A DNA stretch of 64,000 bases, from contig CAZUNO010000002.1 in NCBI GenBank assembly GCA_964621445.1, positions 32,001 to 96,000 of the forward strand. The letters run 5' to 3'. Shown here in pieces: positions 10,028-50,897 of this stretch (position 1 is its first letter; the number at the start of each line of letters is the position of its first letter). The translations under genes were made by a program, and so were the position numbers. The stretch comes from Candidatus Hadarchaeota archaeon. Its GTDB lineage: Archaea; CAYQAE01; CAYVLA01. The notes under the pieces were generated by a model. That model made no database searches. It saw only the letters and a list, made by a program, of their open reading frames with translations, and was not told the origin of the DNA.

Positions 10028-10052
10028 GCCTCTGGCCGTCTGGCAATTATTT

Positions 10053-14291: not shown

Positions 14292-14379
14292 ATACCGGGC
14301 TTACTTATCAGGCAAAAAATTGATCCTGCCAATTTATAGCACTAAAGTCCCCTCCACCTAGGTAGTTTTATGGAGTTCC

Positions 14380-15129: not shown

Positions 15130-15276
15130 CCTCCAAGAATAGCGGAATGATTTACTGGAACTTCCGCATTGAATCCAGCAAATACATATTTGCCCTGCTC
15201 CTTTGGCCCGACAGGTCACTACATTCCCTTGGCTTCTCCGGATCCATTTTAAGAATAATCCAACATTTAGCAACTG

Positions 15277-16016: not shown

Positions 16017-16081
16017 ACCCGGGGATCAAAAAAAGTAATGGCGGGAATCCAGTTATCAGCCCAGGCCAGGATGGTAAATCA

Positions 16082-17056: not shown

Positions 17057-17173
17057 GGAAAGTTTTCTTAGTTTGGTTATGGTTCCCTAATAGGACTAGA
17101 TGGTTTACGTCTTCACCCAAAAATAACTGGGCGAAAACCCAGCTTGCAGGGATTCTAAGGAGGAACCAGCAGG

Positions 17174-35990: not shown

Positions 35991-36587
35991 GTGAAGATAA
36001 TGCTTAAGATAGAGAGGCAAAGGGAGACGAAGGAGACGGATGTATCCATTACCATGGATTTTGATGGATCCGGAAAATCCTCGATAAGTACCGGACTACC
36101 CTTCTTCGACCACATGTTAACCTCCATGGCCAGACATGGAAGGATAGACACCGAGATAGATGTTGAGGGGGATCTTGATGTAGACGACCATCACGTTACC
36201 GAGGACGTGGGAATAGTTCTCGGCGAGGTGATCCTGCAGGCCCAAAAGGAAAGACCCTCGATCCGACGCTTTGGGAGCGCCATAATACCCATGGATGATG
36301 CGCTTATACTCATGGCCATTGACCTTGGGGGCCGGACCTACGTGGATCTAAAGGTCGACTTCAAGAAGGAGTATGTCGGAAGCTTCGTCCTGGATAACAT
36401 CAAGCACTTCATGAGATCGATGGCCGATACCGCCTACATGAATCTCCATGCACACAAGTTATCGGGCAGCGACGATCACCACCTGGCGGAGGCACTATTC
36501 AAGAGCCTGGGAATAAGCCTCTCCCAAGCCCTGAAAAAGGATCCCTCACTCTCCGGAGAGATTCCCAGCACCAAGGGCAGGATCTAG
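35991..36587 (+). CDS. hisB: Imidazoleglycerol-phosphate dehydratase
   Basis: RETKETD, FFDHML, DDHHVTED, PMDDAL, DHHLAEALFK, PSTKG. Confidence 0.95.
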   Translation: MKIMLKIERQRETKETDVSITMDFDGSGKSSISTGLPFFDHMLTSMARHGRIDTEIDVEGDLDVDDHHVTEDVGIVLGEVILQAQKERPSIRRFGSAIIPMDDALILMAIDLGGRTYVDLKVDFKKEYVGSFVLDNIKHFMRSMADTAYMNLHAHKLSGSDDHHLAEALFKSLGISLSQALKKDPSLSGEIPSTKGRI

Positions 36588-37249
36588 GACGCTTCATTTC
36601 TTAGGGCTTTTAGGATAAGGAAAATGGCCACCCTTATCCCGCACCACACGGTAACCCCCCGCACGTACTTTTCATACTTTACCGGTACCTCCTTTACCCG
36701 TAGACCCTTGCGCCTCGCCTCGTACAGCAGCTCCGACTCTATCTCGTACTGGTTGGCGGTTAGGTCCATTCCTTCAAGAGCCGAGGCTCGTATGGCCTTC
36801 AACCCGCTCTGGCTATCCCTGACTGGGTTTCGAGTAATCGCATTGGTCAGCTTGGTAAGTCCCCAGTTCCCGATCCTCATGATAAGGGGCGCCGAATCGA
36901 AATAATTGACCCGGTTTCCCAGAACTATGTCCGCCTCGTCATTGAGGATGGGCTCCACCAGGTTGGGGATGTCACTCGGGTAGTGCTCGCCATCACCGTC
37001 AAGCCTTAGAATGATCTCGGCGTCGTATTCCTCCGCTTTCTCCAGCCCTTTCCTGTATGCTGATCCAACTCCCTGGTTCCTATCGATCTTGAACACCTTA
37101 GCCCCTCCCGCAGTCGCCTCCTGGGAGGATAGATCGGTGCTCCCATCATCGATCACTATAACGTTGTCCACATACTTTGAGGCCTCACGGGCTATTTCCT
37201 GAATGGTTTTCTCCTCGTTGTGGACCGGGATCACGCAAATGGTCTTCAA
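36584..37249 (-). CDS. GT2 polyprenol-phosphate glycosyltransferase (DPM1/ArnC-like)
   Basis: VIPVHNEEKTI, VIDDGSTD, NQGVGSA, LDGDGEH.P, DIVLGNR, DSQSGLKA. Confidence 0.9.
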   Translation of the reverse strand: MKTICVIPVHNEEKTIQEIAREASKYVDNVIVIDDGSTDLSSQEATAGGAKVFKIDRNQGVGSAYRKGLEKAEEYDAEIILRLDGDGEHYPSDIPNLVEPILNDEADIVLGNRVNYFDSAPLIMRIGNWGLTKLTNAITRNPVRDSQSGLKAIRASALEGMDLTANQYEIESELLYEARRKGLRVKEVPVKYEKYVRGVTVWCGIRVAIFLILKALRNEAS

Positions 37250-37297
37250 GTATAATCCCTTACCGTTTGGCTTGAAAGATATCCCGAAAATGCCACC

Positions 37298-37999
37298 TCA
37301 TTTTCTACTCCAGGCAGCGTCTGGTCCCTCATCCACTATCTTTCCATCAACTATGACCAAACCTCTCTTGCAATGCTTAAGAAAGTTGGGATCATGGCTT
37401 ACCGTGATAATGGTTACCCCCAGGTCCTCGTTTACCCTTCCCAGCAGCTCGTAAACCCTTTCCGATGACCTCGAGTCCAGATTTCCGGTCGGCTCGTCCG
37501 CCAGAAGTATTTTTGGATTATTCGCCAGTGCCCGGGCTATGGCAATTCTCTGTTGTTCCCCACCGGATAGCTGATCAGGCTTATTTAAAGCCCTCTGCTT
37601 GAGCCCGATCAACCCAAGCAATTCGCTGGATCTACTGCTCCTGGACTGGCTATCCTTACCTGATAGGACCATGGGGAATTCGATGTTTTCAACCGCGGTT
37701 AGGGTTGGTATGAGATTATATGACTGGAATACAAATCCAATGGTGTGCAGTCTAAGATCCGATAACTCGTCATCGGAAAGCTGTGAGGTATCGCGTCCGA
37801 ATATCTCTACCAGTCCCGAATTTGGTCTATCCAGACAACCCAAAACGTTCAGAAGGGTCGTTTTTCCGGACCCGGAAGGGCCGGAGACTAACACGAAATC
37901 AGCTTCATCTACACTCAAGCTTACTTCTAGGAGCGCTTCCACCTCGATTTCGCCCGCTTTGTAGATTTTTCGCACTTTACGAGTCTCTACTGCCTTCAA
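37298..37999 (-). CDS. ABC ATPase of the LolD/MacB type
   Basis: GPSGSGKTT, IGFVFQSYNLIP.LTA.EN, LSGGEQQR, LADEPTGNLD. Confidence 0.93.
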   Translation of the reverse strand: MKAVETRKVRKIYKAGEIEVEALLEVSLSVDEADFVLVSGPSGSGKTTLLNVLGCLDRPNSGLVEIFGRDTSQLSDDELSDLRLHTIGFVFQSYNLIPTLTAVENIEFPMVLSGKDSQSRSSRSSELLGLIGLKQRALNKPDQLSGGEQQRIAIARALANNPKILLADEPTGNLDSRSSERVYELLGRVNEDLGVTIITVSHDPNFLKHCKRGLVIVDGKIVDEGPDAAWSRK

Positions 38000-38020
38000 T
38001 TTGGCCCCTCAGGGAGCTGG

Positions 38021-38050
38021 GAAACCCTTTAAAAGTATTCTGATAAATAT
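38021..38050. promoter_or_regulatory. Overlapping divergent promoters between the ABC ATPase and the permease operon
   Basis: Plus strand GAAACCC-TTTAAAA (38021-38034), ~22 nt before ATG 38056. Minus strand ATATTTATC (38042-38050) upstream of the GAGGGG RBS and TTG 37999. Confidence 0.5.
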
Positions 38051-38055
38051 TCCCC

Positions 38056-39207
38056 ATGGCCGAGGCCCAATCGATCTGGAAGATGGCCTTTAGGAACCTC
38101 TCGAATCAGAACAAGACCACTATACTAACAGTGGCGGCCATAGCAGTCTGTGTGATGACCTTTGTCTCCATCTTCTCAATCCTCGACGGCCTCCAGTTGT
38201 CCGTTGAGAAGGTAATTAGAGGCTTCTACGGGGAGGAAGGTAGAAGTGCATATGTACTTCCCGCTTCGGATGAAATCGAACAGGGACTTATACCCCGTGC
38301 GGTGGCCGAGGAATATAGAGGACTTGATGATGTATACGGCCTTTCCGAGGAGGATGTGGTGAATTCTTACTACCAGGGAAGAGAGGTGGACCTTCTCGGA
38401 GTTAATCTGGATGACCTTGACGCCACCCACGGATTCCAGGGAATTGATGGCAGGAGCATGGAGAAGGGACCGGAATGCATGGTGGGCTCCACGGCCGCCG
38501 AAATACTTGGCATAGATGTCGACCAAGAGATATCATTGGAACTGGATGACAGCACCGTCGACCTTTTGGTTACGGGAATATACGAGGCCAAGACGTCCCT
38601 CAATGCGAATATCCTGGTGAATAACGAATTCCTTTCCTCCAGAATTCCCCGGTTTAAGGTCAATACCTCCATGCTGCGTATTAAGCTCAAGACGGGAAAC
38701 CTGGAATCGGTAGCCGAATTCACCGAGGAAAACCACCCCGAACTCAGAATCAAGGAATCTGTTCAGGTGAGCAAGTTCTTCCAGAAATCCATCATAAACA
38801 TCTCCCGCCTTCTCAGCACCATCATTATTTTCGTTATACTGCTGATGGTCCTTGGTATATACAATTCAATGAACATGGTGGTTTCGGAGCGAAAAAGGGA
38901 AATTGGGATAATAAGGGCTATGGGAGCCAGGAGGTCCTTCATAGTCAAACTGTTCATGGCCGAAAGTACTATGCTTTCACTTCTAGGGGGCTTATTCGGG
39001 GTCGGGTTGGGAATAGCCATGTCGCATGGAATCACATCGATCTTTTCCATCTTCGTTGCCGGTTCCTCATCTGTCGCTCCCCTCACCAAGCTCACCACCA
39101 TTGGCTGGGCCATGTTTGCCTCCCTGTCGATAGGGCTAATTGGAGGAATTTCCCCGGCAAGTAATGCCTCCAAGGTGGAAATCTCAAGAGCCCTCACGGA
39201 GGTGTGA
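38056..39207 (+). CDS. FtsX/LolE-type ABC permease with a MacB-like extracellular domain
   Basis: MAFRNL...TILT.AAIA, ECMVGSTAA..LG, VSERKREIGIIRAMGA, PASNASK. Confidence 0.92.
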   Translation: MAEAQSIWKMAFRNLSNQNKTTILTVAAIAVCVMTFVSIFSILDGLQLSVEKVIRGFYGEEGRSAYVLPASDEIEQGLIPRAVAEEYRGLDDVYGLSEEDVVNSYYQGREVDLLGVNLDDLDATHGFQGIDGRSMEKGPECMVGSTAAEILGIDVDQEISLELDDSTVDLLVTGIYEAKTSLNANILVNNEFLSSRIPRFKVNTSMLRIKLKTGNLESVAEFTEENHPELRIKESVQVSKFFQKSIINISRLLSTIIIFVILLMVLGIYNSMNMVVSERKREIGIIRAMGARRSFIVKLFMAESTMLSLLGGLFGVGLGIAMSHGITSIFSIFVAGSSSVAPLTKLTTIGWAMFASLSIGLIGGISPASNASKVEISRALTEV

Positions 39208-42200
39208 ACATAGAGAGCCGTCTTCTCCATGCCATGAAGATATTTCCTCGTCACAGAATGTGGCTATCCTTAGCCGGGATAATGGTATGCGCCATTCTCT
39301 TCTTCGGGGTGCTCTCCGTGGTTCACTGGCTTAGCTATTCCTCAACCTCCTACTTCGGAGAGCAAGAGGGCATATACGTACTGGCGCAGGAGGAGGCGGC
39401 CACCGTCAAACAATCACAAGTTCCCCTCGCCCTGGCTCCGGCACTAACCAGGATGAATGGAATCCAGGTGGTTTGCCCCGAACTCTTCATATATGGGGTG
39501 TTAAATGATAAGGCTGTCATAATCCGTGGGATATTCCCATCGGATTTCCAATCACTTGAACCGGTCACCCTGATTCAAGGGCGGTGGCTCAGGGACGACG
39601 ATATCAAGGCCGCCGTGGCTGGCCAGAATCTAGCCCGAAAACTGGATCTGAAGGTGAACGATACCTACCTGCTTTCAGGATCCGAGGTTGATGACTTCGT
39701 CAGGATCAGGATCGTGGGCATCTTCAAGGGAGGGGGAATGATTGATGACGACCTACTCATGAACATACACTACGCCAGGTATCTCCAACAGGAAACACAA
39801 CCCGGTTATGCCTCAATAATCCGGGCCAAGGTCAACACCACCATCTGGCCCAGCGTAGAAAGCATCTGGCAATCGGTCAGCGGACTTCCCAATATAACGC
39901 CGCTCCAATATGAACCAACTGCTCCCAACAACACCCAGAGACTGCATTTCACCTGCAATGCCACAGCTCATACCGAAGTGGGCTCGGTCATACTCTACTA
40001 CAAAAAGCAGGGTCTCCATCGCACAATCCAAAAGACCATGATAAAGGGAAATTCAAGTCAGTTTAGGACCCAGATCGGCCCTGTGAAGGACTCCTCATGG
40101 GTACTTTGTTGGGCCAACGCCACTGATATTTTGGGCCACGATCGACGGACGCCTGAGGTTAACATCTCAATAACAGATGCCCTGGGACCGGACATATTCG
40201 ATCTGACAATTGAACCGCCCCCGCCCCAGACAAAGGATCACCTGGTAAACGTCTCCTTCAAGGTATTCGATACAAGCGAAATGGTCAGGAACGTAACCGT
40301 CCACACATATAATGTTGGACTTAATCGTACATTCCACGGAAAGGACTCCACGGGGCGGGCTTACGAGCTAACCCTGGGAAGGTTTGAACCGGGACCATTG
40401 ACCCTTTGGATATCCGCCCGGGATAGATTCGGCAATCTGGCACGAACGGCTCGATACAGGTACAGGATCCTCAATAGGACCGATCAATCCCCTCCCGAAA
40501 TAGGTGAGATGGTATTCGAGCCTGACCCCCCGAATGACAACTCCACCCTGACCGTGAACGTTCCAATGTTCGATGACTCAGAGATCGTTACCGCCGACCT
40601 TATCTATGACTATCAGGTCAAGGGCATTCACTACAATGGGACCCTTAAGATGAATAGAAGCCAGGCCCAGGAGGGCCTTTGGGAAGCGGTAACCGGTTCC
40701 TTTCCGGGTGCCACAACGATTCATTTCAGGATATTCGCCAGGGACCAATTCGGGAACGCCGTATACTCGGAGACCAGGGATGTATTCGTGAGATACTCGG
40801 AGCCACCGGAGGAGCTCCAGGTCTACAGATTCCCCCAATATTCCACTCCCGGCCTCAATAATCTGGTATTCGCCGTTCTCTACGACGCGGCGGAGATCCA
40901 GGAGGTCAACTTCACCTTCGTGGAAGCGGGTAGATGGACCAACCTCTCCATACCCGTGGGGATAACTACCTTTAGGGAACCCTTTCTCCTGGGGCGCCTA
41001 TCAACCGGGTTCAAGGAATATAATCTCTCCATGGAGGACAGGCGGGAAGAGGTGACCAGATATCCAGGACAGGGACTGGAAGGGTTCCTTGTTCAGCGAA
41101 AAAGACCCCACATAGAGGATATACAGTATTCCTCGACTGTAAGGAAGGGCTTTCCCCTAATGGTGACCTTCAGGGCAGTCGGCGTCTTCCCACTAAGCGA
41201 GGTATATACCACCGACTCCAGAGGGGTAGTGGAAAAATGCGAAAGGATTGAGGGTGAATATACCGCGATCCTGGGTCCATACTCCAAGCCGGGTGACTAC
41301 TCCTTCAGTATAACTACCCAGGACTGGGCGGGCAATACACGGACCATTGAAGACCGGGAATTCACCGTAGAGGAGGAATCGATAACCGATATCGACTTCA
41401 CGCCAAAACCGCCCATTCTGGGAGAGGAGCTAACCGTGACCTGTAGGGTGATCGGGGACTCTCCCCGCAAGAAGGTCCGGCTCATAGCACCTGTGGGCGG
41501 CAAGTACGTGTTGACTCCAATGGAATTGGAGGAGGGGAGGAGATTCGCGTCCATACCCATCGATAGCCCTGGTATTCTACCCTTCTCGGTACAGGTCGAG
41601 GATGGAGAGGATCTGATACGCTCAAAAACCGTACGGCTTAACGTCGGTTCCAACCACTCATCATTGTACCTGGCTCACAGCCCACCCCATCCTCTGAGTA
41701 CCCAGAATATAACAATCTCCATCTTTGCCAGGTCGGGTCATAACCTGAAATCGCTGGAACTGGAATGGAAAAATGGATCCCACGAGATTCCACATCGCAA
41801 GGTCTGGAGGCTAGAGGGGACGGAAACGAGATTAGACTTCAAACCGGGAAGGCAAATAGAGGGGACCCTTCTTTACAGGGCAATTCTTACCACTGAAATG
41901 GGTAGCCTTACCTATCCCCTGACGGAGGACGAGTGGCTCGGGATCTCCATCACCAAAAACCTGTTTACCCCCCCGGAAATTGGAAGATTATCCCTATCCC
42001 CCCAGACTTACGTGGGACTGGATGGGAACAGGGGACAGGATTTCCTTGTTGAGGTCGGTTGCCCAATTTCCTTTGACCAGGGTATATCCTCGGTTGAGAT
42101 AGATTACGTGGTAGACCAGAGAACCTATAACGAGCCACTCCTACCGGTTTCCCGGAAATACGGGCTCTCCTCAAGGTTTTATTCAGCCTATCTCGGTCCC

Positions 42201-45200
42201 TTCCCCACCAACGAGACCATAAGTTGTCAGGTCACTGCCAGAAGCATCTCGGGATTGGAATCCTCCACCCCGGAGGTGAGCTATGTCCTCCGGGATACGG
42301 AACCTCCGGAGATACAGGATATATATCACGACCCCCTACACCCTGAACCCAAAAAGGAAATAACCATTGGGTGCGAGGTAACCGATGACTCGGGTGTCAA
42401 GGACGTTTTGCTGCTGTACGGCGGCAATGGCACCCAAAATGCAGAGCGCATGATGCGGTACGGAAATACCTACACTCTGGACCTTCTCTCCCCGCCCGCG
42501 GGCGAATCCCTCACCTATGCAATACAGGCCACGGATAACTACGGCAACAGCAACCAGTCCTTGCCGGGTACCGTTACCTCTAGGGACGAAACCCCACCCG
42601 ATATATGGGAGGTCACCCATGACCCGCTGGAACCAACGGATAATGACAGCGTCAACATAACCGTCCGACTCATCGATCGGCAGGATGAAATCGAAAACGT
42701 GACCCTACTCTGGTACCAGTACACCTGGAAGAACCAGACCAAGAAGGGGGGCAGCGGGTACATTACCAGGGTATTCCAGATCGATGCCTCTGAGTTTGAC
42801 CCGGGAATGAACGTACGGTACAAGATCGAGGCCTTTGACCGTTCGGGAAACAAGGCGGTCTACCCCAACGTAGAGCAGGGAGAAACGCCTCCTTCTCCAC
42901 TTCTCTATGGCGATAATCCTAATTCCCTGAGACAGGAAGCATGGGAACCCTATCTCACCTTCCGGGTTGTCGACAGATCCCCTCCCGTTCTCACCCTTGA
43001 TGCCCAGCCCGAAAGTCCAAATGAACTTGAAACCGTTACCTTCGAGGTGTCAGCGGAGGACAATCACCTTCTCAGGAACTACACGCTTCACCTATGGGTG
43101 TCAGGGGTTTACAGGCCTTTCAGCGAGCAGGTAGGTCGTCCTAGCTTCAGGGACGAGTTCTCCTCCGGTCCCCTAGAACCGGCATCCACCATAGTTTGCT
43201 ATCTTGAGGCATACGACAGGTCCGGTAATTATGCCCGGTTTCCGGCTCGCTCCAACCTTACCATAGATGTGGAGAGGTTCGAATGGGGAGGCGAGATGGC
43301 CGCCGTCGATCCCAGGGTTGACCTTGAAGTCGCCGGCCCGGCCGGTTTTTCTCAGGGAATGGCCAGACAGGGAGCGGGAAAGATAATCGCCAGCATAAAT
43401 GGCATCCTTTTCATGACCTTTCTGGCCACCGTGGCCGGCATCGGCAATATAGTCTACACCTCGGTTTTCAAATCGAAGAGGGAAATAGGCCTGGTCCGAA
43501 CATTAGGGGGGAGCAAGAAATTCGTCACCCTTCTGGTGGCCTCGGTTACCGTCCTGCTGGGCCTGACCGCTGCCTTGATCGGGTGTGTAATTGCCTACCT
43601 GCTGATAACGGTGTTTTCTAACCTAGGAGCCTCCCTTGCCTGGGTCACCTTGAAGCCCACATTCAATATCCTTATTCTGGCAGCGACTTCAGCGGCCGCG
43701 GTGACCATTAGCCTCTTCGGTGGAATGGTAGCCCTTACCAGGCTTTTTTCATATACCCCTGTGGAATCGATAAGGACGGTGACCGCGCCCCAAGCGAAGA
43801 GGGAGCATCCAACCTACATCGAGAATACAAGGCGTTTCCCCGCAAAGACCATCGCCGTTTTACTCCTCATCACCATTAGTGCCGCTGCCATGATGCGCCT
43901 ATATCCTACATATATCTCCGAGCAGCCCTTCGATCCCGATTCCTGGTTGCACCTAACCGCTGCATCCGATATGCGGGAGACCGGCCATCTGAGACTCGAT
44001 TACGCTTCCCGGGAAATGCAGGCGGTCAGCGCCCTCCCTGGCCTCAACATCCTGCTGGTCGTATCCCAGGTATTGACCGGGAGCGAGATGATCCCAGCGA
44101 GGATCATAACCCCCATCATATCATCACTTGGCTTGATCCTGGCCTTTGTACTGGCCAGGAAACTCTCCAGGAGCGATATCGTGGCAGGAATGACCGCGAT
44201 CATACTGGCAGTGGTTGGCTTTTATGCCAACCGAACGGCAGCGCTTACCAAGGAGGCCCTCGCACTCCAGATGCTCCTACTCTGCCTCTACATGTTATAC
44301 CTAAGCCACATCTCCAGAAGCACCAAGCACAAGACTCTGCTAGTTGCCATTTCCGTTGCCCTGATGCTGACCCATCACCTAACGGCCATCTATTTCATGC
44401 TGATTTTTGTGGGATACATCTTTCTGAGAATCTTCCACAAGTATTCCCAGGGTGTCATCGACCCCCTGGAGGTCAAGCAGGATGCCCTAACCGGTCTTGG
44501 GGTCCTAACCAGCTATCTTATCATCAGCTTCACCCTGGGCAAGTACGAAACTCCGATACCATTCCAGGACTCCCTTCTGATAATATCCCTGTTCTTCGTG
44601 ACCATCGGATTCGGAAGAATTTTGCTTTCGTCATCATTCTTGGGCCAGCACCGGAGATCTATATCCCTGGTCGCAGCCCTGGGTACGGTTACCTTCCCCT
44701 TCATCGCCTACCGCGCCGGGCTCTTCTCCTACGCACCATGGGAACAGGTCCTCCCCATGATAGCCCCCCACTTGTCCCTTCTGGCCATAGCGATCCTGGC
44801 CCTGTTCCCGGTCTCCCTGCTCTCAGAAAATCGAAAGTCCTTCATCTTGGCCTGGGCCTCTGCCGTGATTCCCTTCCTATTATTTGGACTTGTCAAAAGG
44901 GATATCTTCGGCTACATACTGCTCTTCAGGAACATCTCATACGGTTATCAACTATCGGCCATATTGGTAGGCATCGCCTTCGTCTATGCCTACAAGCGTT
45001 TCGAGGCCGGAGGTCAGGATGGAATCCGCACCGGGCTGGTTGCCATAGCCGCGGTGCTCCTCATGACCAACCTTCTATTCGCCTCCCACATGGGTTTTCT
45101 GTCCCGCCCTTATGAGAAGAAGGACCTATACACGACCACGGAGTTCAACGCGGCCTTGAAGGTGAACCAATCAACCCTAAGAGGTCAGCTGGTAGGGTCG

Positions 45201-45500
45201 GACGAACGTGGTCGCCGGCTTCTATTGTACGTAACTGGGGAGGATGGAGACCAGATCACGACCTACGTCTATATGATCAGGATGGAAAAATGGTTAATAA
45301 ACAGGCTTAACGAACAGGTCAACTTGACCGAGAAGCCGCTGACCCATATCCTCACCTATGACGAGATGTTTGAGGTCGGTTTCGTGGATCAGGTACTGTT
45401 CAAGGATGTGGAAAGGCTAGAGCTCAATCGATATGAGGACGTCATTCTGGACAACGGCGGTGAACACCTCATTTACGTGGCCAGGAAGGAATGGCCGTAG
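39204..45500 (+). CDS. 2098-aa fusion: TM + MacB head + ~11 Ig-like repeats + FtsX permease + GT-C-like membrane glycosyltransferase
   Basis: QGRWL...VAGQNLARKL; repeats D..PP.I...P..P...V.D...A.D..GN (~39890-43290); KREIGLVRTLGG (~43476); DPDSWLH...ETGH (~43932), KEALAL, LTHHLT and more than 10 further TM segments. Confidence 0.85.
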   Translation: MNIESRLLHAMKIFPRHRMWLSLAGIMVCAILFFGVLSVVHWLSYSSTSYFGEQEGIYVLAQEEAATVKQSQVPLALAPALTRMNGIQVVCPELFIYGVLNDKAVIIRGIFPSDFQSLEPVTLIQGRWLRDDDIKAAVAGQNLARKLDLKVNDTYLLSGSEVDDFVRIRIVGIFKGGGMIDDDLLMNIHYARYLQQETQPGYASIIRAKVNTTIWPSVESIWQSVSGLPNITPLQYEPTAPNNTQRLHFTCNATAHTEVGSVILYYKKQGLHRTIQKTMIKGNSSQFRTQIGPVKDSSWVLCWANATDILGHDRRTPEVNISITDALGPDIFDLTIEPPPPQTKDHLVNVSFKVFDTSEMVRNVTVHTYNVGLNRTFHGKDSTGRAYELTLGRFEPGPLTLWISARDRFGNLARTARYRYRILNRTDQSPPEIGEMVFEPDPPNDNSTLTVNVPMFDDSEIVTADLIYDYQVKGIHYNGTLKMNRSQAQEGLWEAVTGSFPGATTIHFRIFARDQFGNAVYSETRDVFVRYSEPPEELQVYRFPQYSTPGLNNLVFAVLYDAAEIQEVNFTFVEAGRWTNLSIPVGITTFREPFLLGRLSTGFKEYNLSMEDRREEVTRYPGQGLEGFLVQRKRPHIEDIQYSSTVRKGFPLMVTFRAVGVFPLSEVYTTDSRGVVEKCERIEGEYTAILGPYSKPGDYSFSITTQDWAGNTRTIEDREFTVEEESITDIDFTPKPPILGEELTVTCRVIGDSPRKKVRLIAPVGGKYVLTPMELEEGRRFASIPIDSPGILPFSVQVEDGEDLIRSKTVRLNVGSNHSSLYLAHSPPHPLSTQNITISIFARSGHNLKSLELEWKNGSHEIPHRKVWRLEGTETRLDFKPGRQIEGTLLYRAILTTEMGSLTYPLTEDEWLGISITKNLFTPPEIGRLSLSPQTYVGLDGNRGQDFLVEVGCPISFDQGISSVEIDYVVDQRTYNEPLLPVSRKYGLSSRFYSAYLGPFPTNETISCQVTARSISGLESSTPEVSYVLRDTEPPEIQDIYHDPLHPEPKKEITIGCEVTDDSGVKDVLLLYGGNGTQNAERMMRYGNTYTLDLLSPPAGESLTYAIQATDNYGNSNQSLPGTVTSRDETPPDIWEVTHDPLEPTDNDSVNITVRLIDRQDEIENVTLLWYQYTWKNQTKKGGSGYITRVFQIDASEFDPGMNVRYKIEAFDRSGNKAVYPNVEQGETPPSPLLYGDNPNSLRQEAWEPYLTFRVVDRSPPVLTLDAQPESPNELETVTFEVSAEDNHLLRNYTLHLWVSGVYRPFSEQVGRPSFRDEFSSGPLEPASTIVCYLEAYDRSGNYARFPARSNLTIDVERFEWGGEMAAVDPRVDLEVAGPAGFSQGMARQGAGKIIASINGILFMTFLATVAGIGNIVYTSVFKSKREIGLVRTLGGSKKFVTLLVASVTVLLGLTAALIGCVIAYLLITVFSNLGASLAWVTLKPTFNILILAATSAAAVTISLFGGMVALTRLFSYTPVESIRTVTAPQAKREHPTYIENTRRFPAKTIAVLLLITISAAAMMRLYPTYISEQPFDPDSWLHLTAASDMRETGHLRLDYASREMQAVSALPGLNILLVVSQVLTGSEMIPARIITPIISSLGLILAFVLARKLSRSDIVAGMTAIILAVVGFYANRTAALTKEALALQMLLLCLYMLYLSHISRSTKHKTLLVAISVALMLTHHLTAIYFMLIFVGYIFLRIFHKYSQGVIDPLEVKQDALTGLGVLTSYLIISFTLGKYETPIPFQDSLLIISLFFVTIGFGRILLSSSFLGQHRRSISLVAALGTVTFPFIAYRAGLFSYAPWEQVLPMIAPHLSLLAIAILALFPVSLLSENRKSFILAWASAVIPFLLFGLVKRDIFGYILLFRNISYGYQLSAILVGIAFVYAYKRFEAGGQDGIRTGLVAIAAVLLMTNLLFASHMGFLSRPYEKKDLYTTTEFNAALKVNQSTLRGQLVGSDERGRRLLLYVTGEDGDQITTYVYMIRMEKWLINRLNEQVNLTEKPLTHILTYDEMFEVGFVDQVLFKDVERLELNRYEDVILDNGGEHLIYVARKEWP

Positions 45501-46310
45501 GTGCTTGTCTTGGAGAGATCTTTGGCCATCAGAGTAGACATCGACACCATCAAGGGGCTCTTGGATGGGGTCCCCATTCTACTGGACATGTTCGACGACC
45601 TGGGAATCCAGGCCACGTTTTTCGGCTGTGTGGGGCCGGATAAGACCTCGAGAAGTTTCCTGCAAGCTCCGCGAATCGCCAGGCATGTTTCCGTAAATCC
45701 CCTGAAAAAATTCGGGCTCCGTGAAATCATGGGTTCCATTAAAGGCCTTGATTTCCGCAAGCATGACGGGGAACTGAGGGAGATCCAGGAAAGGGGCCAC
45801 GAACTACAGCTCCACGCCTTCGATCATCTGGATTGGATAAAAAGGGTGGAGAACCTTGACCTATCGGGGACCAGGTCACTTATCGAGAGGGGCATACGTA
45901 GCTTTGAGGCAATCACCGGCAGGAAACCCCGGGGTTTCGCATGTCCAGCCTTCAGGGTTACGGAGAATGTCCTGCTGGCTGAACAGGAGCTGGGATTCGA
46001 CTATGCAAGCGATTATCATGATCTTCTGAGGACTGTTCCCTTCAAGCCGCAGGAATCATCGGTTCTACAGATACCGGTGAACGCTCCTCTGATAGAAGAT
46101 ATGGTAGCAAAGGGTTTGAGCGATGCGCAAATACTATCCAGGCTCAAAAACATTGTAGATCAAACCCCGCTGACCGTGTTTTATCTACATCCCTGCTATG
46201 AGCCTCGGCTAAAAGGGGACCTACTGAGGGATTTCATAGAACAGGCCCTGGAAAAGGCCCGTCATGTGAAATTTTGGGAGGTGTGGAAAAGCTGGAGTCA
46301 TTGCGCATAG
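45501..46310 (+). CDS. ArnD-family lipid-linked amino-sugar deformylase/deacetylase
   Basis: IRVDIDT..G...GVP.LL, VGPD, HELQLHAFDH..W, QIPV..P and F.LH...E match the ArnD motif order (RIDVDT, VGPD, HEVGLHAWDH, QIPVTLP). Confidence 0.85.
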   Translation: MLVLERSLAIRVDIDTIKGLLDGVPILLDMFDDLGIQATFFGCVGPDKTSRSFLQAPRIARHVSVNPLKKFGLREIMGSIKGLDFRKHDGELREIQERGHELQLHAFDHLDWIKRVENLDLSGTRSLIERGIRSFEAITGRKPRGFACPAFRVTENVLLAEQELGFDYASDYHDLLRTVPFKPQESSVLQIPVNAPLIEDMVAKGLSDAQILSRLKNIVDQTPLTVFYLHPCYEPRLKGDLLRDFIEQALEKARHVKFWEVWKSWSHCA

Positions 46311-47464
46311 TGATGATCTACGAGCTGGGACCTAAGGACGACGGTTCATTTCTCGGTGGCATAGAGTCCCACATACTGGGTCTTGCCAAGGAGCTAGCTC
46401 ATGACCATCAGGTAACCATTCTAACCGGCGCCATACCGGGGGAGAGAGATAAAACTGATCTCGATGGGCTGAATGTCATTAGATCCGATATCATGGGAAT
46501 GGTTTCTCGATCCTGGAACCCCACCAACCTTACAACGAGGCGACAGATCTTCTCCACCCCCGCCTTTCTAAGGACGGGAATCGACCTGGATGCCGACATT
46601 TACCACGGACATATTTACACCTCGGGGATTTCAGCTCTGGGCCTGGCATCGCTTGGTTCCGGTGGTTCGGTTAACACCATACACGGGTCCTACTATGACC
46701 ACTGGGAATCAATTACCAACTCGAGCCTCAAACCCCATGCCTACAGAGTGGCCGAGAGATTATTGGCAACGTTCCTAGCTCGCAATTGCGATAGACAGAT
46801 ACACACGGCAACCGATTTCGCGGTTAAGGTCAGGCAGTGGGGGGCACCGCAAGAAAAGGTCCAGGTAATACTCAACGGGGTTGATACCGATAGATTCTCA
46901 CCTCAGGTAAATCCCCGCGAACAATCGGACATACCAATAGTGATGACGGTTCGTCGGTTGGTACCCAAGAACGGGGTCCACCATTTCATCCAGGCCTGCA
47001 GCCATTTGGAGAGGGAATCTAGATTCGTTATAGTTGGCGATGGTCCTTCCAGACCGGGTCTAGAGTCGCTGGCGAGGAGGATAGGGGTGGACGACCGGGT
47101 TGAATTCCGTGGCGCAATTCCCAACAACCAGATGCCAGGAATCATCGCCGGTGCCGACGTGTTAGTTATCCCCAGTTTGGTCGAGGCCTCCAGCATATCC
47201 CTATTGGAGGCAATGGCCATGGCAAAGCCAACGGTGGTCACCAACATACCGGGCATCGACGAGGTAGCAAGTCCGGAGAGAAGCATCATGGTTCCACCCG
47301 GGAACCCCGAGGCCATCGCAACGGGCATTGATCACCTTCTATCCGATAGGAAGAAAGCGAGGGAACTTGGAAGAAAAGGACGAGAATACGTGGTCGCTAA
47401 TCGATCCATCAAGAAGATGACGGAGAAAACAATGATCATCTACCGCCAGGCACTCGAGTCCTAG
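46301..47464 (+). CDS. GT4 glycosyltransferase
   Basis: GGIESHI, NGVDTDRF, RRLVPKNG, PSLVEASSISLLEAMA; TTG start with GGAG RBS. Confidence 0.92.
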   Translation: MRIVMIYELGPKDDGSFLGGIESHILGLAKELAHDHQVTILTGAIPGERDKTDLDGLNVIRSDIMGMVSRSWNPTNLTTRRQIFSTPAFLRTGIDLDADIYHGHIYTSGISALGLASLGSGGSVNTIHGSYYDHWESITNSSLKPHAYRVAERLLATFLARNCDRQIHTATDFAVKVRQWGAPQEKVQVILNGVDTDRFSPQVNPREQSDIPIVMTVRRLVPKNGVHHFIQACSHLERESRFVIVGDGPSRPGLESLARRIGVDDRVEFRGAIPNNQMPGIIAGADVLVIPSLVEASSISLLEAMAMAKPTVVTNIPGIDEVASPERSIMVPPGNPEAIATGIDHLLSDRKKARELGRKGREYVVANRSIKKMTEKTMIIYRQALES

Positions 47465-47838
47465 ACCCTGGACAGCAGGATCAAGGCCAGTATACCACAC
47501 CCGATCCCTGCCGCTATCCTCAGATCTACCTCCTCGCCCAGCAATACAACGCATAGAACCGCGAACAGGACGTTTCCCAGGACAATAACCAGGTTCAAGC
47601 CCAGTACGGCAGGTACATCGTTTGACAGGAAAGCCAGATCCACCGCCAAAACCACCAGGCCCATCAGAAGAACAAGGTAGACATATGGATTTCTAGCCAG
47701 GGAGAAAAGAAAGGATGGGCTCAGGACCTGGGATAGCGAGGTTTCGTCGAGCTTATCCGCTGCAACCTTGTGAAAAAAGAGATTAAGACCACTAAGCACT
47801 CCAGCAACTATGGCGAATAATAGGATCTTACCCTGCAA
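47461..47838 (-). CDS. EamA/SMR-like 4-TM protein (ArnE/ArnF-like flippase candidate)
   Basis: 125 aa, 4 TM helices, ending VLLGEEVDLRIAAGIGCGILALILL (EamA-type end). Confidence 0.7.
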   Translation of the reverse strand: MQGKILLFAIVAGVLSGLNLFFHKVAADKLDETSLSQVLSPSFLFSLARNPYVYLVLLMGLVVLAVDLAFLSNDVPAVLGLNLVIVLGNVLFAVLCVVLLGEEVDLRIAAGIGCGILALILLSRV

Positions 47839-47840
47839 GT

Positions 47841-48656
47841 TTAGCCCCCCGAGGCTTCAGCCGCCCTCTCCTGGCTGGACTCCACCCTCCTAAACACGAA
47901 GAACCAGAAAACGAAGATCCAACCTATAAAGAACACGAAACCAAAATAGTCATGGAAGGTCTTCATGGCCTCAAACCCTATATAATAGGTTATGAGAGAA
48001 AGAACCACTATCCTCACTATATTGGCCGAGTAGGTCCCGGCCGCCCCCACAAGGAAGTAAACGCTACCCATCTTCTTGTCCATCCTATCCCTGAGATCAA
48101 CCAGCATCATGGCGAAGAAAGCCAGGAACAGGAAGGAGGAATGGATCCCCGAACAGGCCTCAGTAACCAGAAGGGTCACCGGCCGAGAGTGGTCGGGGGC
48201 TGAAAGAACTATCTCGTTTCCTGCTCCCGAAAAGGGAATACCCATCATGCTCAGCACCGCCCTGGAAAAATACATCACGTTTCCAAGCCAGGCCCTGCCG
48301 AAAGAGGTCTCCAGTATGTACTTATCGAATCCAATGGTTATCAAGAAATAAAAAACCAGAACCGGGGTAACGAAGAAGTAAAGCAAAGTCCGATAACGTA
48401 GCAGAAAATCGTACTCCCGCGACAGATAGCGATAGGCCAGGAACAAGGAACCGATCCCCACAAAAACCAAGCCGGACGCAACAGCCAGATCAGAGGAACG
48501 AACACGCTGGAAAAGGACGTATGAAACAAGCGCAAAAGCCAGGTACCCATAACCGAGGATCGAAACCTGAGAGAACGACACATTCTCCTTTATGGCGGAG
48601 ACCGGCCTCATAGAGATGAAGGACAGCGTATATCTAATAAATGGCTTGCGAATCAC
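47841..48656 (-). CDS. Archaeosortase/exosortase-family transpeptidase
   Basis: Polytopic protein with the triad motifs VTEACSG (Cys), ANIVRI (Arg) and FHDYFG (His). Confidence 0.9.
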   Translation of the reverse strand: MIRKPFIRYTLSFISMRPVSAIKENVSFSQVSILGYGYLAFALVSYVLFQRVRSSDLAVASGLVFVGIGSLFLAYRYLSREYDFLLRYRTLLYFFVTPVLVFYFLITIGFDKYILETSFGRAWLGNVMYFSRAVLSMMGIPFSGAGNEIVLSAPDHSRPVTLLVTEACSGIHSSFLFLAFFAMMLVDLRDRMDKKMGSVYFLVGAAGTYSANIVRIVVLSLITYYIGFEAMKTFHDYFGFVFFIGWIFVFWFFVFRRVESSQERAAEASGG

Positions 48657-48662
48657 TTTGGT

Positions 48663-49520
48663 TTATAAATCCAACCAGGGCCGGAGTAGAAATGTGCAAA
48701 ACAGCAGACAGCCAAGAGGAATTGCTATCACTATTACCAGGGGCAGGTCTCTCTGGGGCAGGGTACCTGCCTTGATTATCTTGATCGCTTCTGGGTCAGT
48801 AACCCCCTTCTCCTGCATTTTTTCTAGCAAAGCGGTGAGTTGCCAATAGTACGAGGTGAAACTCACAAATGCCGTAAACTCGCTCTCGACCCCTTCTGGA
48901 GGGCTATCCAGCTTGACCGCTTCCCGGTAAGCATCTCTAATGGCCATTGCCTTCTCCCGGTTTTTGCCTATCACGGTTTCATAACTGGGATAATCAAACA
49001 CCGTATTCCCCACCACCATGTACGAATCGCCCTGGATAACTATGGTTTTGCTAGGCATGAAATTGTATTGAGAACCAGAAACTGCAGATCTCACACCCAC
49101 CAGGCAGAGCATCACTATTGAGAAATATACCAGATCACGCCAGGCCGCATTCCAGCCCTTTCTCGAGGGGCACCTAAGGTAGATCAAGGCGATGACGCAC
49201 ACTAATAGTGCCAAAGCAGAAACGGTCACCGGGGGGTCCAGCAGGCCATTGCCGAGGCGGAACTTCTGGCCCAAGAGGTTCAGAACATCGTGGAAAAAAA
49301 ATAGATTGAGCAACGGCCCGGTGTCCAATTTCCCGTCTCCGTAAAGCCGAGTTATTTGTGGAAATACCGCCAGGGACCCCAGTGTGGACACGACTACTGC
49401 CACTCGGTAGGAACTGATCTCGGGGTTATCCTCCTCCCTCCTCTTTGGAATAGAAATTCCAAAGATGATCAAGCAACACCCCACGATCGCGCCGAAAAAG
49501 AAATGCGCGAGAGGATTCAT
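48663..49520 (-). CDS. Membrane protein, N-terminus resembling membrane metal-dependent hydrolases (degenerate)
   Basis: LAHFFFGA, LAVFPQ and NLFFFHDVL; several TM helices, a soluble loop and a C-terminal TM. Confidence 0.5.
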   Translation of the reverse strand: MNPLAHFFFGAIVGCCLIIFGISIPKRREEDNPEISSYRVAVVVSTLGSLAVFPQITRLYGDGKLDTGPLLNLFFFHDVLNLLGQKFRLGNGLLDPPVTVSALALLVCVIALIYLRCPSRKGWNAAWRDLVYFSIVMLCLVGVRSAVSGSQYNFMPSKTIVIQGDSYMVVGNTVFDYPSYETVIGKNREKAMAIRDAYREAVKLDSPPEGVESEFTAFVSFTSYYWQLTALLEKMQEKGVTDPEAIKIIKAGTLPQRDLPLVIVIAIPLGCLLFCTFLLRPWLDL

Positions 49521-49631
49521 TGAAATGAAGCAGCCGACTGGGCTGATTAATATTTCACCGGCATTAAATCAAAGGTAATAGCTTCAAATCCACGGGCTCT
49601 CGATACATTTAAGAGATAAATCGAGCCCCGT

Positions 49632-50897
49632 TTGCCTGGGATGGGCCGCAAGAAAATAATCATTCTAGGTATGGGTAGGATAGGGCTACCCACTGCTGCA
49701 TGTCTAGCCAACGCTGGTCACCAGGTACTTGGAGTCGATATAGATCAACGAAAGGTTGCCGATATCCGCGAGGGGAGGATAGATGGCAAGGAACCTGGAT
49801 TATCCGAAATGGTACTATCGGCCATGGAGTCGGGGACCCTCCGCATTTCAACGGAGCCGGTCCGGGGCGACGTATTCCTGCTTTGCCTGCCCACCCTGCT
49901 CAAGGAGGATAGGACATGTGATCTATCGGCCATTTCCTCCGCGATGGACTCCATATCAAATGTCATCTCGCCGGGCAATCTGATTATCCTGGAATCCACC
50001 GTGCCGGTACATACCACCCGGGATTTCCTGATACCTGGGCTGGAAAAGAGAGGAGTGGACACCTGTAAGGTGCTCTTCGCTTATGCCCCGGAGAGAATAA
50101 TGTCGGGAAGAATGCTGGAAGAGATAAGGAAGGATGACCGGATAATCGGTGTCACAAGTGAAAAGGCTGCAAAACTAGCCAGAGAGGTGTACGAGAGCTT
50201 CGTTGAGGGGGACATTTTCATTACCGATACCTCCACGGCCGAATTGGTGAAGCTCGCGGAAAACACCTACAGAGACATAAACATAGCTTACGCCAACGAG
50301 GTCGCCCTCTTCTGTCAGCGGGAAGGGATCGATGCCCGACGTGCAATAGAGCTGGCCAATAGGCATCCCCGGGTTGAGATACATCGCCCAGGACCCGGAG
50401 TTGGAGGCCACTGCATACCCGTGGTCCCTCATTTCCTGGCCCAGAATAATAGCTACGATATGATGATAAAAGCGGCGAGAAAAGTAAACGAATCCATGCC
50501 GAGATATATAGCCAACATGATAACCAGGACCATAAGCGGAGCGGAGCAACCAAAGGTCTCCCTTATGGGCATGGCCTATAAGTCCGGCTCAGGGGACACC
50601 GTAAACAGCCCGGGATTACAGATTCTGGAGCATCTCCAGGGTGAGAGGATGGAAATTCTCCTATGCGACCCACTTGTAAGAAACCAGGAAATGGACCTTG
50701 TGGAAATGGAGGAGGCCCTTTCATCGGACTGCATCGTCTTTCTAGTCGCCCATCAGCAATTCAAGGAAATTGATCCACCCAAACCCAAGAAGGCCATGGC
50801 GACCGTCATAGATACCGCAAACTGCATAGAGCCGCGGAAATGGATCCGGCAAGGCTGGAAAATTAAACGTTTCGCATCCAAGAATCCTAAGGCTTAA
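49632..50897 (+). CDS. Nucleotide-sugar dehydrogenase (UDP-HexNAc 6-dehydrogenase, WecC/WbpA-like)
   Basis: GMGRIGLP, ESTVP, APER, KLAENTYRDINIA.ANE, PGPGVGGHCIP. Confidence 0.9.
   Translation: MPGMGRKKIIILGMGRIGLPTAACLANAGHQVLGVDIDQRKVADIREGRIDGKEPGLSEMVLSAMESGTLRISTEPVRGDVFLLCLPTLLKEDRTCDLSAISSAMDSISNVISPGNLIILESTVPVHTTRDFLIPGLEKRGVDTCKVLFAYAPERIMSGRMLEEIRKDDRIIGVTSEKAAKLAREVYESFVEGDIFITDTSTAELVKLAENTYRDINIAYANEVALFCQREGIDARRAIELANRHPRVEIHRPGPGVGGHCIPVVPHFLAQNNSYDMMIKAARKVNESMPRYIANMITRTISGAEQPKVSLMGMAYKSGSGDTVNSPGLQILEHLQGERMEILLCDPLVRNQEMDLVEMEEALSSDCIVFLVAHQQFKEIDPPKPKKAMATVIDTANCIEPRKWIRQGWKIKRFASKNPKA

Follow-up and report, generated by a model that had tools for sequence, protein, structure and literature searches.

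Ten contiguous genes in a Candidatus Hadarchaeota genome bring together a type VII ATP-binding cassette (ABC) transporter, enzymes of lipid-linked sugar metabolism, and an archaeosortase. They lie in a stretch of 64,000 nucleotides (nt), here called the window (G000:C2:32001-96000, that is, part of contig C2 of genome G000, a 3.2-Mb metagenome-assembled genome that is 96% complete). We read these genes, with about even confidence, as a composite locus for surface glycoconjugates and protein anchoring, in which an amine would be freed on a lipid-linked sugar and glycosyl transfer outside the membrane would be coupled to the type VII ABC motor. Two results bear on this reading: the giant protein g4 is a permease whose C-terminus has a predicted GT-C glycosyltransferase fold, and outside its own Hadarchaeota family the locus splits into two separately conserved modules, A (transporter and GT-C) and B (deacetylase and GT4 glycosyltransferase).

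The genes, named g1 to g10 (Table 1), occupy the interval between hisA/hisB and endA and fall into four transcription-like units, g2-g1 and g9-g8-g7 on the minus strand and g3-g4-g5-g6 and g10 on the plus strand. A first-pass annotation of the window had described the ten as contiguous and tightly coupled, which is borne out: the g3-g4 overlap is 4 nt and the g5-g6 overlap 37 nt, g5 begins directly after the stop codon of g4, and the gaps within g9-g8-g7 measure 6 and 2 nt. The GC content of the locus (0.51-0.54) resembles that of the remaining window. Because all ten proteins are conserved in relatives (40-84% identity), we regard the open reading frames (ORFs) as genes and not as chance ORFs. 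Families were called by comparing Pfam and NCBIfam model scores with the cut-offs of the models (gathering or equivalog), and the calls of the first-pass annotation, including the permease-GT-C fusion, largely stood, the weak one being the assignment of g7 to EamA/SMR.

A GT-C domain fused to a type VII ABC permease

The last 564 residues of g4 form a domain with multiple transmembrane (TM) helices, which AlphaFold2 (AF2), given an alignment of 40 of its relatives (alignment A1), modeled with a pLDDT of 84.7 and a pTM of 0.88. All 25 Foldseek matches with E <= 0.001 were oligosaccharyltransferase (OST)/AglB/PglB, DPY19, ArnT, or ALG12 entries. VIA, a fold search independent of Foldseek, placed AglB first (Z 28.2, root-mean-square deviation 3.9 over 441 residues), followed by STT3B (Z 27.7), PglB (23.4), ALG12 (22.2), Pmt1/2 (20.7), and ArnT (19.8); the first 14 rows of its results hold GT-C transferases (down to Z 15.6), and below them, in rows 15-20, stand GT-C enzymes or glycosylphosphatidylinositol (GPI)-transamidase complex entries (Z 15.2-12.4). 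The C-terminal globular part of the domain also resembles that of AglB (Z 8.4). At the level of the structural model, the GT-C fold that had been proposed for the C-terminus of the giant protein is confirmed, with oligosaccharyltransferases as its nearest relatives in fold.

Directly after the first TM helix of the domain (model helix 13-38), the first external loop carries the motif P-F-D-P-D-S-W (D1577, D1579). D45 of the domain, which is D1579 of g4, is invariant across the 40 sequences of A1, giving the family a conserved acidic residue in its first loop. P41, P78, K149, and R375 are invariant as well, the K/E, HH, and R positions are invariant or nearly so in the 40 sequences, and D466 is the sole near-invariant acidic residue in the C-terminal globular region. 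The basic linker of about 40 residues that follows FtsX TM4 of the permease portion is predicted to be cytoplasmic, and the first GT-C loop with its invariant Asp would therefore face outward.

Despite its fold, the domain is not a strict OST, for four reasons. It has no Pfam match at E <= 10, whether to STT3, PMT, PMT_2, or any other model; a reading of the g4 translation revealed neither WWD nor WWDYG, the latter being what we take to be the C-terminal-domain motif of STT3/AglB/PglB; alignment to the AglB of its own genome is weak (hhalign probability 36.5% over 150 residues, with the invariant Asp aligning weakly with the AglB 'DD'); and the genome carries two canonical STT3/AglB genes on another contig, next to each other and in opposite orientation (G000:C32:7184-9560; L008, L009). 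PMT_2 matched weakly in 3 of the 40 A1 members (best E 1.1e-4). A profile search of the family against PDB sequences returned only spurious matches (E >= 0.0066) and was set aside, and a search for homologues of near-equal length gave five matches, three named 'hypothetical protein' and two without a name. An all-against-all HMMER comparison that included the g4 domain gathered 107 proteins at E <= 1e-3, most of them stand-alone proteins of ~530 amino acids (aa), and G000 itself has two weak paralogues on contig C5, one beside GT4 genes. A1 represents an uncharacterised GT-C family with an OST-like fold that is spread over archaeal lineages. Its g4 member would use a sugar donor linked to polyprenyl phosphate, as suggested by the neighboring AglJ/PpgS-like GT2 gene g1 and by GT2 genes near relatives at loci L044-L046.

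The remainder of g4, together with g2 and g3, makes up an ABC transporter. The ATPase g2 matches ABC_tran (E 5e-31) and scores 229 bits against LolD, 227 against MacB, and 209.5 against FtsE among NCBIfam models. In g3, which has a TM1 followed by C-terminal TM helices, the domains are MacB_PCD (residues 22-214) and FtsX (255-375); in g4, MacB_PCD spans residues 20-198 (E 8e-13) and FtsX 1401-1518 (E 9e-9), with TM helices at 22-40, 1394-1412, 1450-1468, and 1487-1505. Both domains exceed their Pfam gathering scores in both proteins, which places the pair with type VII permeases of the MacB/LolCDE type. Between the two halves of the g4 permease lies an insert of ~1,150 residues with no significant Pfam domain (Big_7 appears only at E 0.075-0.13; the G153 homologue has a sub-threshold Big_13 match). 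This insert is 50-60% identical in relatives and holds 27 N-x-S/T sequons where ~8 are expected, about three times the number predicted by composition. In orthologues, residues ~1034-1342 are weakly similar to the first ~300 residues of the insert; since self-BLAST of the g4 ectodomain gave no off-diagonal match at E 1e-2, any such repeats are very divergent. A second g3-like FtsX permease ORF, convergent with a g1-like GT2 ORF, is found outside the window at G000:C2:189579-191662.

Transporter and GT-C domain might instead form a BceAB- or MacB-like defense or sensing pump against antimicrobials bound to polyprenyl phosphate, or a peptide exporter, in which the GT-C would serve only as a module for binding the lipid carrier. 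Lipid-carrier complexes can be targets of type VII ABC transporters, and the g2 score for LolD is hardly better than its scores for models of bacteriocin, darobactin, and MacB exporters. Yet the GT-C domain retains its catalytic-type invariants (D, K/E, HH, R) across 40 sequences, its family also includes fusions with a GT2 (P0099) and with a MatE/flippase-like domain (P0104), and the neighbors of the transporter are glycan genes, so that we consider a pump of this kind highly improbable.

The transporter and GT-C recur together in distant archaea

Distant relatives were sought in 401 genomes, 397 of them outside the family of the window, with a profile of the fused form, g5, and g8; the regions fetched were analyzed locally with tblastn, phmmer, hidden Markov models (HMM), and Pfam. 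Outside the family, the locus is split into modules A and B, which are conserved separately.

Module A, consisting of one or more FtsX permeases, a LolD-like ATPase, and an A1 GT-C that are adjacent or fused, occurs at five non-family loci. Four have adjacent genes (G153/L042, G337/L037, G329/L036, G297/L039), and the fifth, the 4.4-kb metagenome contig L015, encodes a permease-GT-C fusion of 816 aa together with a permease and an ATPase. The G153 locus repeats the layout of the window with a separate GT-C gene: a divergent ATPase, a 338-aa FtsX protein, a 1411-aa FtsX protein with a large insert, and an overlapping 518-aa GT-C. Shorter permease-GT-C fusions of the same architecture are P0005 (1121 aa) and P0059 (817 aa). 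Among the seven non-family loci matched by the permease (L036-L038, L040-L043), the A1 GT-C stands beside permease and ATPase in three (L036, L037, L042), and L040 has a weak GT-C 8 kb away. Among the eight matched by the GT-C (L036, L037, L039, L044-L048), ABC genes are adjacent in three (L036, L037, L039). A third pairing, besides the two modules, joins the A1 GT-C to a g1-like (AglJ/PpgS-like) GT2, which lies within 10 kb of it at L044, L045, and L046; in two of these loci a 148-aa ORF separates the genes, encoding a Sm_multidrug_ex protein with several TM helices in L044 and, in L046, a protein that has one TM helix and no family. For the split permease/GT-C pair of G337, complex prediction run without alignments returned no verdict, at a score of 0.01.

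Deacetylase and glycosyltransferase genes form a second module

The product of g5 belongs to the CE4/NodB deacetylases (Polysacc_deac_1, E 1e-11, 45.2 bits against a gathering score of 23.1). Its best NCBIfam model is ArnD (102 bits, E 3e-29, 250 of 269 residues covered), below the cut-off of 382, and it matches the sequence of ArnD structure 8t0j over residues 8-246 (E 7e-18). Against the PEP-CTERM/XrtA deacetylase model TIGR03006 it reaches only 30.8 bits (cut-off 276.2). The translationally coupled g6 is a GT4 enzyme (Glycos_transf_1, E 3e-33), whose best NCBIfam model, the PEP-CTERM/XrtA-system glycosyltransferase stp2 (TIGR03088), scores 113.2 against a cut-off of 409. Three UDPG_MGDP_dh domains and 369 bits against TIGR03026 (cut-off 190) identify g10 as a nucleoside diphosphate (NDP)-sugar dehydrogenase, and by model scores it is closest to uridine diphosphate (UDP)-N-acetylmannosamine (ManNAc) dehydrogenases, at 332 bits against a cut-off of 459 and 321 against 750 for the two equivalog models. 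The GT2 nature of g1 is clear (Glycos_transf_2, E 3e-25; TM helix at 195-213). Of its earlier description as ArnC/DPM1-like, ArnC is the more distant part: AglJ (120.5 bits), PpgS (92), and the dolichyl phosphate (Dol-P)-hexose transferase model (72) all outscore ArnC (33.6), and each score lies under its equivalog cut-off, which for ArnC is 529. As had been stated before, ArnA and ArnB are absent, in that no such domain was detected among the ten genes by Pfam or NCBIfam.

An ArnD-like gene is present in 16 of the 401 genomes, 12 of which are among the 397 outside the family. We examined eleven of its neighborhoods (L051-L061) in ten non-family genomes, five of the stretches being shorter than 11 kb. 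Module B was recovered in G235/L051, G005/L054, and G245/L060, where the CE4 gene lies directly next to an orthologous GT4 (phmmer E 4e-80 to 4e-93); the GT4 overlaps the end of the CE4 gene in L051 and L054, as in the window, and an archaeosortase adjoins the pair in L051 and L060. A g8-like sortase is encoded by 6 of the 12 non-family genomes with an ArnD-like gene and by 31 of 397 overall (Fisher p 9e-5, or 6e-4 after collapsing one same-genus pair; kin among the genomes are not independent).

Two of these neighborhoods have further surroundings of interest. In L051:8267-13271 (G235) the CE4-GT4-archaeosortase run comes directly after genes for an A24 prepilin-type peptidase and an Rce1-like CPBP protease, and beyond the run stand an ORF of 137 aa with two TM helices, a YdjM-like gene, and a pair of sugar epimerase genes; the stretch looks like a compact operon for surface-protein processing. 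In L055:4560-6391 (G138) a FemAB/Acetyltransf_6 gene adjoins the ArnD-like CE4, a pair like VimA/VimE, and at the end of that contig there are two GT4 genes and an incomplete gene of the GT-C family.

An archaeosortase and candidate sorting signals

Archaeosortase g8 exceeds the cut-offs of PF09721 (63.4 bits against 25.7) and TIGR04178 (57 against 23) and falls short of that of ArtC, TIGR03762 (60.5 against 100). It contains C168-S-G, N212, R215, and H235, and in an alignment of seven sortases G170, N212, R215, and H235 are invariant; the Cys, Arg, and His are presumably the catalytic triad of exosortases and archaeosortases. A second archaeosortase of G000, at C19:27284-28000, was recognized by its Pfam match only and has no phmmer similarity to g8. 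About 6 kb from it, C19:33677-39577 encodes a 1966-aa CARDB/Peptidase_C25/Big_7 protein that ends in A-E-E-P, a TM helix, and a basic tail (the two regions are loci L080 and L090).

The neighbor of g8, g9, could be a dedicated partner or target of the sortase. Five orthologues are 42-46% identical, with 57 invariant columns. All six orthologues retain A-G-T-L-P-x4-P immediately before the C-terminal TM helix, and H6, H77-D78, and several charged residues in or near TM segments are also retained. A likeness of g9 to YdjM was considered and ruled out (hhalign probability 0.2%).

Candidate substrates were sought among the C-termini of the genome. Of 5,357 ORFs in G000 of at least 100 aa, 97 end in a hydrophobic stretch and a basic tail, and in 12 of these [PS]E[PGFALS] (for example I-P-E-P or I-S-E-x) stands just before the C-terminal TM helix, against 3.1% in random windows, a four-fold excess whose p of 5e-5 is optimistic because the motif was picked post hoc from the list. 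An (I/V)(P/S)E-x core with a TM helix and a basic tail is a possible new C-terminal sorting signal. Ten candidates were scanned with Pfam, eight of the 12 and two with look-alike tails. Their clear matches are of extracellular type: purple acid phosphatase with CARDB; pectate lyase; GH32/GH130; and the 1966-aa CARDB/Peptidase_C25/Big_7 protein. A fifth has weak BNR matches.

Conservation of the cluster and competing readings

With the g4 GT-C domain as query, matches were obtained in three of three other family genomes and in none of 37 further archaeal genomes in the sample, and additionally at a locus in a public genome (L003) and on five metagenome contigs (63-72% identity). At L003, L010, L012, L049, and L050 every gene within reach of the contig is present in unchanged order, with identities from 40% (g9) to 84%. 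Co-clustering of these genes in other genomes, which the first-pass annotation had proposed as a check, therefore holds for one Hadarchaeota family and gives way to splits in the 397 other archaeal genomes.

Several observations weigh against the composite reading. The full ten-gene set is confined to the window's own family (three of three other genomes, and metagenome contigs), and at L003 the flanking hisB, endA, RLI, and HAD genes are syntenic too; because these housekeeping flanks have been kept as well, conservation of the cluster within the family reflects kinship and is no proof of a functional unit. The fetched stretches of the five non-family ABC and GT-C loci (up to ~10 kb per side; 4.4 kb for L015) contain no g1-, g5-, g6-, or g8-like gene. 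At G360/L058 the ArnD-like gene adjoins, divergently, a g1-like GT2 instead of a GT4. There is no ArnD-like neighbor at 13 (L067-L079) of the 15 non-family sortase loci examined, so the adjacency of CE4, GT4, and sortase comes to 2 of 15. The product of g7 is, by weak and marginal likeness, SMR/EamA-like: it has no Pfam or NCBIfam match at 0.01 and no PDB sequence match, EamA appears at E 0.22 and SMR models at E 0.016-0.3 in some of five orthologues, and its neighbors by a protein language model (Atlas feature) are EamA/SMR at 0.95, while the protein itself is 62-74% identical in relatives. For g9, Pfam and NCBIfam gave no family, Atlas neighbors reach at most 0.83, and the AF2 model is unusable (pLDDT 53.6). 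Finally, PssD (phosphatidylserine decarboxylase) was not found in four of four family genomes (91-100% complete) or in G235, but as a test of the amine idea this does not discriminate, because two of the ten genomes that combine sortase and CE4 (G245, G382) have PssD, as do two of five sortase-only genomes.

The first-pass annotation had joined the genes into a single Arn-like machine. As one linear pathway, g1 would load an N-acyl sugar on Dol-P, g5 would deacylate it, g7 would flip it, and the g4 GT-C would transfer the amino sugar to a lipid or to a protein processed by the sortase, with the ABC transporter and the sortase as obligatory parts. Four part types analogous to those of Arn are indeed present, the best matches of g5 are to ArnD, and the gene directly follows g4 in every family member. 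GT2, a small membrane protein, and an A1 GT-C are neighbors in L044 and L046, and the GT2 beside the ArnD-like gene at L058 fits the same scheme, as does the order of the Arn steps in PMC7911091. Outside the family, though, the ArnD-like gene has a GT4 as partner at three loci against a GT2 at one, and it never stands beside the ABC and GT-C set at the loci examined; the ABC and GT-C loci, for their part, have neither GT2 nor CE4 in the stretches fetched; moreover, g1 is far better matched by AglJ/PpgS than by ArnC, and the identity of g7 as a flippase is weak. The Arn-like set of parts is present; ABC with GT-C and ArnD-like gene with GT4 occur apart outside the family, and we think a single linear pathway unlikely.

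Unlikely, too, in our judgment is an ordinary juxtaposition, in which genes for a surface glycan (exopolysaccharide, N-glycan, or S-layer glycan) would merely adjoin a MacB-type exporter unrelated to them and a sortase, with no substrate in common. The fused GT-C would then be a paralogue of OST-like kind whose targets are proteins or the glycosylated ectodomain of the transporter itself. The complete cluster is indeed found only where the flanks are syntenic, its modules lie apart elsewhere, the genome has many further GT4, GT2, and FtsX genes besides its two canonical AglB genes, and the g4 ectodomain is rich in sequons. Against chance neighborhood stand the translational abutment and overlap of g3-g4-g5-g6, which persist across genera at 47-65% protein identity, the recurrence of the permease-GT-C fusion or adjacency in distant lineages, and the CE4-GT4-sortase run in two distant genomes.

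Proposed mechanism

Starting from the gene content, folds, topology logic, and module conservation observed here, we infer which substrates are used, in what order the steps follow, and how the free amine is connected with the sortase, the last by analogy with the Wbp/Vim pathway of type IX secretion (T9SS). In the composite reading that we favor, module A would comprise ATPase g2 and permeases g3 and g4, with the catalytic loop of the g4 GT-C facing outward, and module B would comprise g5, translationally coupled to g6, plus g10, g7, g8, and g9. The dehydrogenase g10 would supply a UDP-N-acetylhexosamine (HexNAc)-uronic acid. On the cytoplasmic face, a lipid carrier or a glycan already linked to lipid would receive a HexNAc or its uronic form from g6 and/or g1, with g1 most likely loading sugar on Dol-P as donor for the g4 GT-C. 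Removal of the N-acyl group by g5 would then leave a free amine, and g7 or the ABC transporter would flip the intermediate outward. Outside the membrane, the g4 GT-C would transfer the Dol-P-borne sugar to an acceptor, and during this step that lipid-linked acceptor, or the product, would be held or extracted by the ATP-driven pair of permeases. Sortase g8 may cleave the C-terminal (I/V)(P/S)E-x, TM, and basic tails of surface enzymes and join them to the amine-bearing lipid or glycolipid.

A more specific version, which we regard as quite unlikely, would make the locus a glycolipid-anchor machine. Here the type VII ABC motor and the OST-like GT-C would finish or ligate a lipid-linked glycan outside the membrane, the motor would extract the product or hand it on, and the merger seen in Hadarchaeota would add the amine sugar of the deacetylase and GT4 as nucleophile for the archaeosortase. 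Such a machine would be a part-for-part prokaryotic counterpart of GPI anchoring, with its GT4 and de-N-acetylase, Dol-P-sugar synthase and GT-C, and cysteine transpeptidase, as well as of T9SS anchoring to anionic lipopolysaccharide (A-LPS), and it would point to what exosortases, and archaeosortases besides ArtA, use as acceptor.

If the ABC-GT-C pairing is a working unit, it would add ATP-driven mechanics to glycosyl transfer outside the membrane, a step believed to draw on the lipid-linked donor as its sole source of energy. If the deacetylase and GT4 feed the sortase, they would provide a candidate acceptor for archaeosortase and exosortase systems, where an acceptor is known, tentatively, for ArtA alone. 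We know of no cultured member of the Hadarchaeota and of no study of their envelope, and a literature search on the phylum listed no Hadarchaeota paper among its matches; the genes described here offer first hints on the hadarchaeal cell surface.

Other features of the window

Positions 8840-21216 of the window hold a run of secreted genes of polysaccharide-degradation type, listed with the ten genes and their flanks in Table 1.

Table 1 Features of the ten-gene locus, its flanks, and other ORFs of G000 (window positions unless a contig is given)
Feature	Position	Strand	Description
g1	36584..37249	(-)	GT2 polyprenyl-phosphate sugar synthase-like (AglJ/PpgS/DPM1 type), 221 aa, one C-terminal TM
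g2	37298..37999	(-)	LolD/MacB-type ABC ATPase, 233 aa
g3	38056..39207	(+)	FtsX-type permease with MacB periplasmic core domain, 383 aa
g4	39204..45500	(+)	Permease-GT-C fusion, 2098 aa
g4 residues 1-230	39204..39893	(+)	TM1 and MacB-type extracytoplasmic core domain
g4 residues 231-1380	39894..43343	(+)	Large extracellular insert, sequon-rich
g4 residues 1381-1534	43344..43805	(+)	FtsX TM2-TM4 and basic cytoplasmic linker
g4 residues 1535-2098	43806..45500	(+)	GT-C domain, predicted OST-like fold; then stop codon
g5	45501..46310	(+)	ArnD-like CE4 deacetylase or deformylase, 269 aa, no TM
g6	46274..47464	(+)	GT4 glycosyltransferase, 396 aa
g7	47461..47838	(-)	Small membrane protein, 125 aa, ~4 TM; possible SMR/EamA-like flippase
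g8	47841..48656	(-)	Archaeosortase, subfamily unclassified
g9	48663..49520	(-)	Conserved membrane protein without family
g10	49632..50897	(+)	UDP-HexNAc (ManNAc-type) 6-dehydrogenase
hisA/hisB	35259-36587		His_biosynth, IGPD
endA	50887-52008		tRNA_int_endo
Window ORF	8840-10090		PQQ_2 beta-propeller with C-terminal TM tail
Window ORF	10053-10955		Second CE4 deacetylase
Window ORF	10956-12278		Beta-helix/NosD
Window ORF	12390-14291		DUF4838 protein
Window ORF	17174-18796		Sulfatase with chitobiase C-terminal domain
Window ORF	18793-21216		DUF4838 protein
Example ORF	C13:18074-21802		Candidate C-terminal sorting signal
Example ORF	C22:27-1808		Candidate C-terminal sorting signal
Example ORF	C4:50555-52837		Candidate C-terminal sorting signal

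Comparison with known systems

The Arn pathway of Gram-negative bacteria, which places 4-amino-4-deoxy-L-arabinose (L-Ara4N) on lipid A, acts on its lipid carrier in the order ArnC, ArnD, ArnE/F, ArnT (PMC7911091). Its GT2 charges polyprenyl phosphate with an N-acyl sugar, the amine of this lipid-linked sugar is exposed by the CE4 ArnD, flipping falls to small subunits with 4 TM helices, and outside the membrane a GT-C transfers the amino sugar (PMC7911091). The locus has the same part types, with g7 as a possible flippase. Unlike Arn, the locus has no ArnA/ArnB-type domains, and archaea have no lipid A; g1 is nearer to AglJ/PpgS than to ArnC, and the GT-C is OST-like in predicted fold, not ArnT/PMT_2-like. 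The locus also adds a GT4, an ABC transporter, and a sortase, and outside the family its CE4 travels with the GT4.

The same logic operates, without ArnA/ArnB, in Bordetella (LgmABCD), Francisella and Acinetobacter (FlmF2-NaxD-FlmK), and Mycobacterium (PpgS-Rv3779), where UDP-HexNAc is converted to polyprenyl-P-HexNAc and deacetylated, and a GT-C transfers the resulting hexosamine. The acceptors in these systems are lipid A or arabinogalactan, and they are not known to include a fused ABC permease or a sortase. NaxD-dependent addition of galactosamine to lipid A is described in PMC7911091. The point of contact with the locus is the PpgS model, the second-best match of g1.

By analogy of part types, g10, g5, g6, and g8 appear to have counterparts in the T9SS of Porphyromonas and Tannerella, with its Wbp/Vim enzymes and sortase PorU; VimF is of the GT4 class. 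In PMC7468200, VimF is an A-LPS-specific glycosyltransferase, and the cleaved C-terminus of T9SS cargo is joined to the amine of a linking sugar borne on a glycolipid. To make that sugar, the cell requires VimA, the putative CE4 VimE, and a dehydrogenase of WbpA type. Its authors speculate there that the same applies to exosortase loci with a deacetylase and glycosyltransferases (PMC7468200). Differences are that the sortase belongs to another family, that the anchor in T9SS is A-LPS in the outer membrane, and that the locus has no counterpart of VimA; FemAB-like genes occur elsewhere in G000 and not in the locus.

PEP-CTERM/XrtA loci likewise cluster an exosortase-family protease with CE4 and GT4 genes, according to section 20 of PMC7468200, and the candidate tails of G000, with a P/S-E core, a TM helix, and a basic tail, follow the same plan. 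In contrast, g5 and g6 score far under the cut-offs of the corresponding models, and the locus, which is archaeal, has a single sortase-type gene and no EpsI/asparagine synthase or FemAB-like gene. ArtA of Haloferax and Methanosarcina, which acts with PssA/PssD, is of the same sortase family as g8; in PMC7157517 it is modeled as a transpeptidase that forms a thioester, which the amine of a lipid then resolves, and Methanosarcina has artA in synteny with pssA/pssD. Unlike that system, g8 is not ArtA, and its neighbors appear to make sugars instead of an ethanolamine lipid.

For the transporter, the comparison is with MacB, LolCDE, and FtsEX, with which the locus shares a LolD-like ATPase (g2) and two FtsX permeases with MacB-type outside domains; the ~1,150-residue ectodomain insert of g4 is unusual among them. 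Mechanical work on the outer side of the membrane, for example the extraction of lipid-anchored cargo, is what type VII ABC transporters perform. A GT-C-type ligase acting just ahead of ATP-driven glycolipid extraction is also the logic that leads from WaaL to Lpt (LptB2FG). The GT-C domain is in turn comparable to AglB, STT3, and PglB, its best fold matches, in its TM core and C-terminal globular domain and in the D-x-D-like motif of its first outside loop, and it differs from them in having neither an STT3 Pfam match nor WWDYG.

The first-pass annotation knew of no described system with this combination of genes, and this claim holds in part. No description of a type VII ABC transporter fused to, or in an operon with, a GT-C was found in the literature searched (a search outside which subscription papers and supplements lay), and the recurrent coupling of the two in archaea, as fusion or operon, appears undescribed. 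In their logic, by contrast, Arn, the T9SS Wbp/Vim pathway with its sortase, and PEP-CTERM/XrtA are similar, and we count Lgm and NaxD/Flm among the bacterial look-alikes as well. The locus is thus a new variant assembled from known part types, not a categorically new system, and each of its modules has look-alikes in bacteria.

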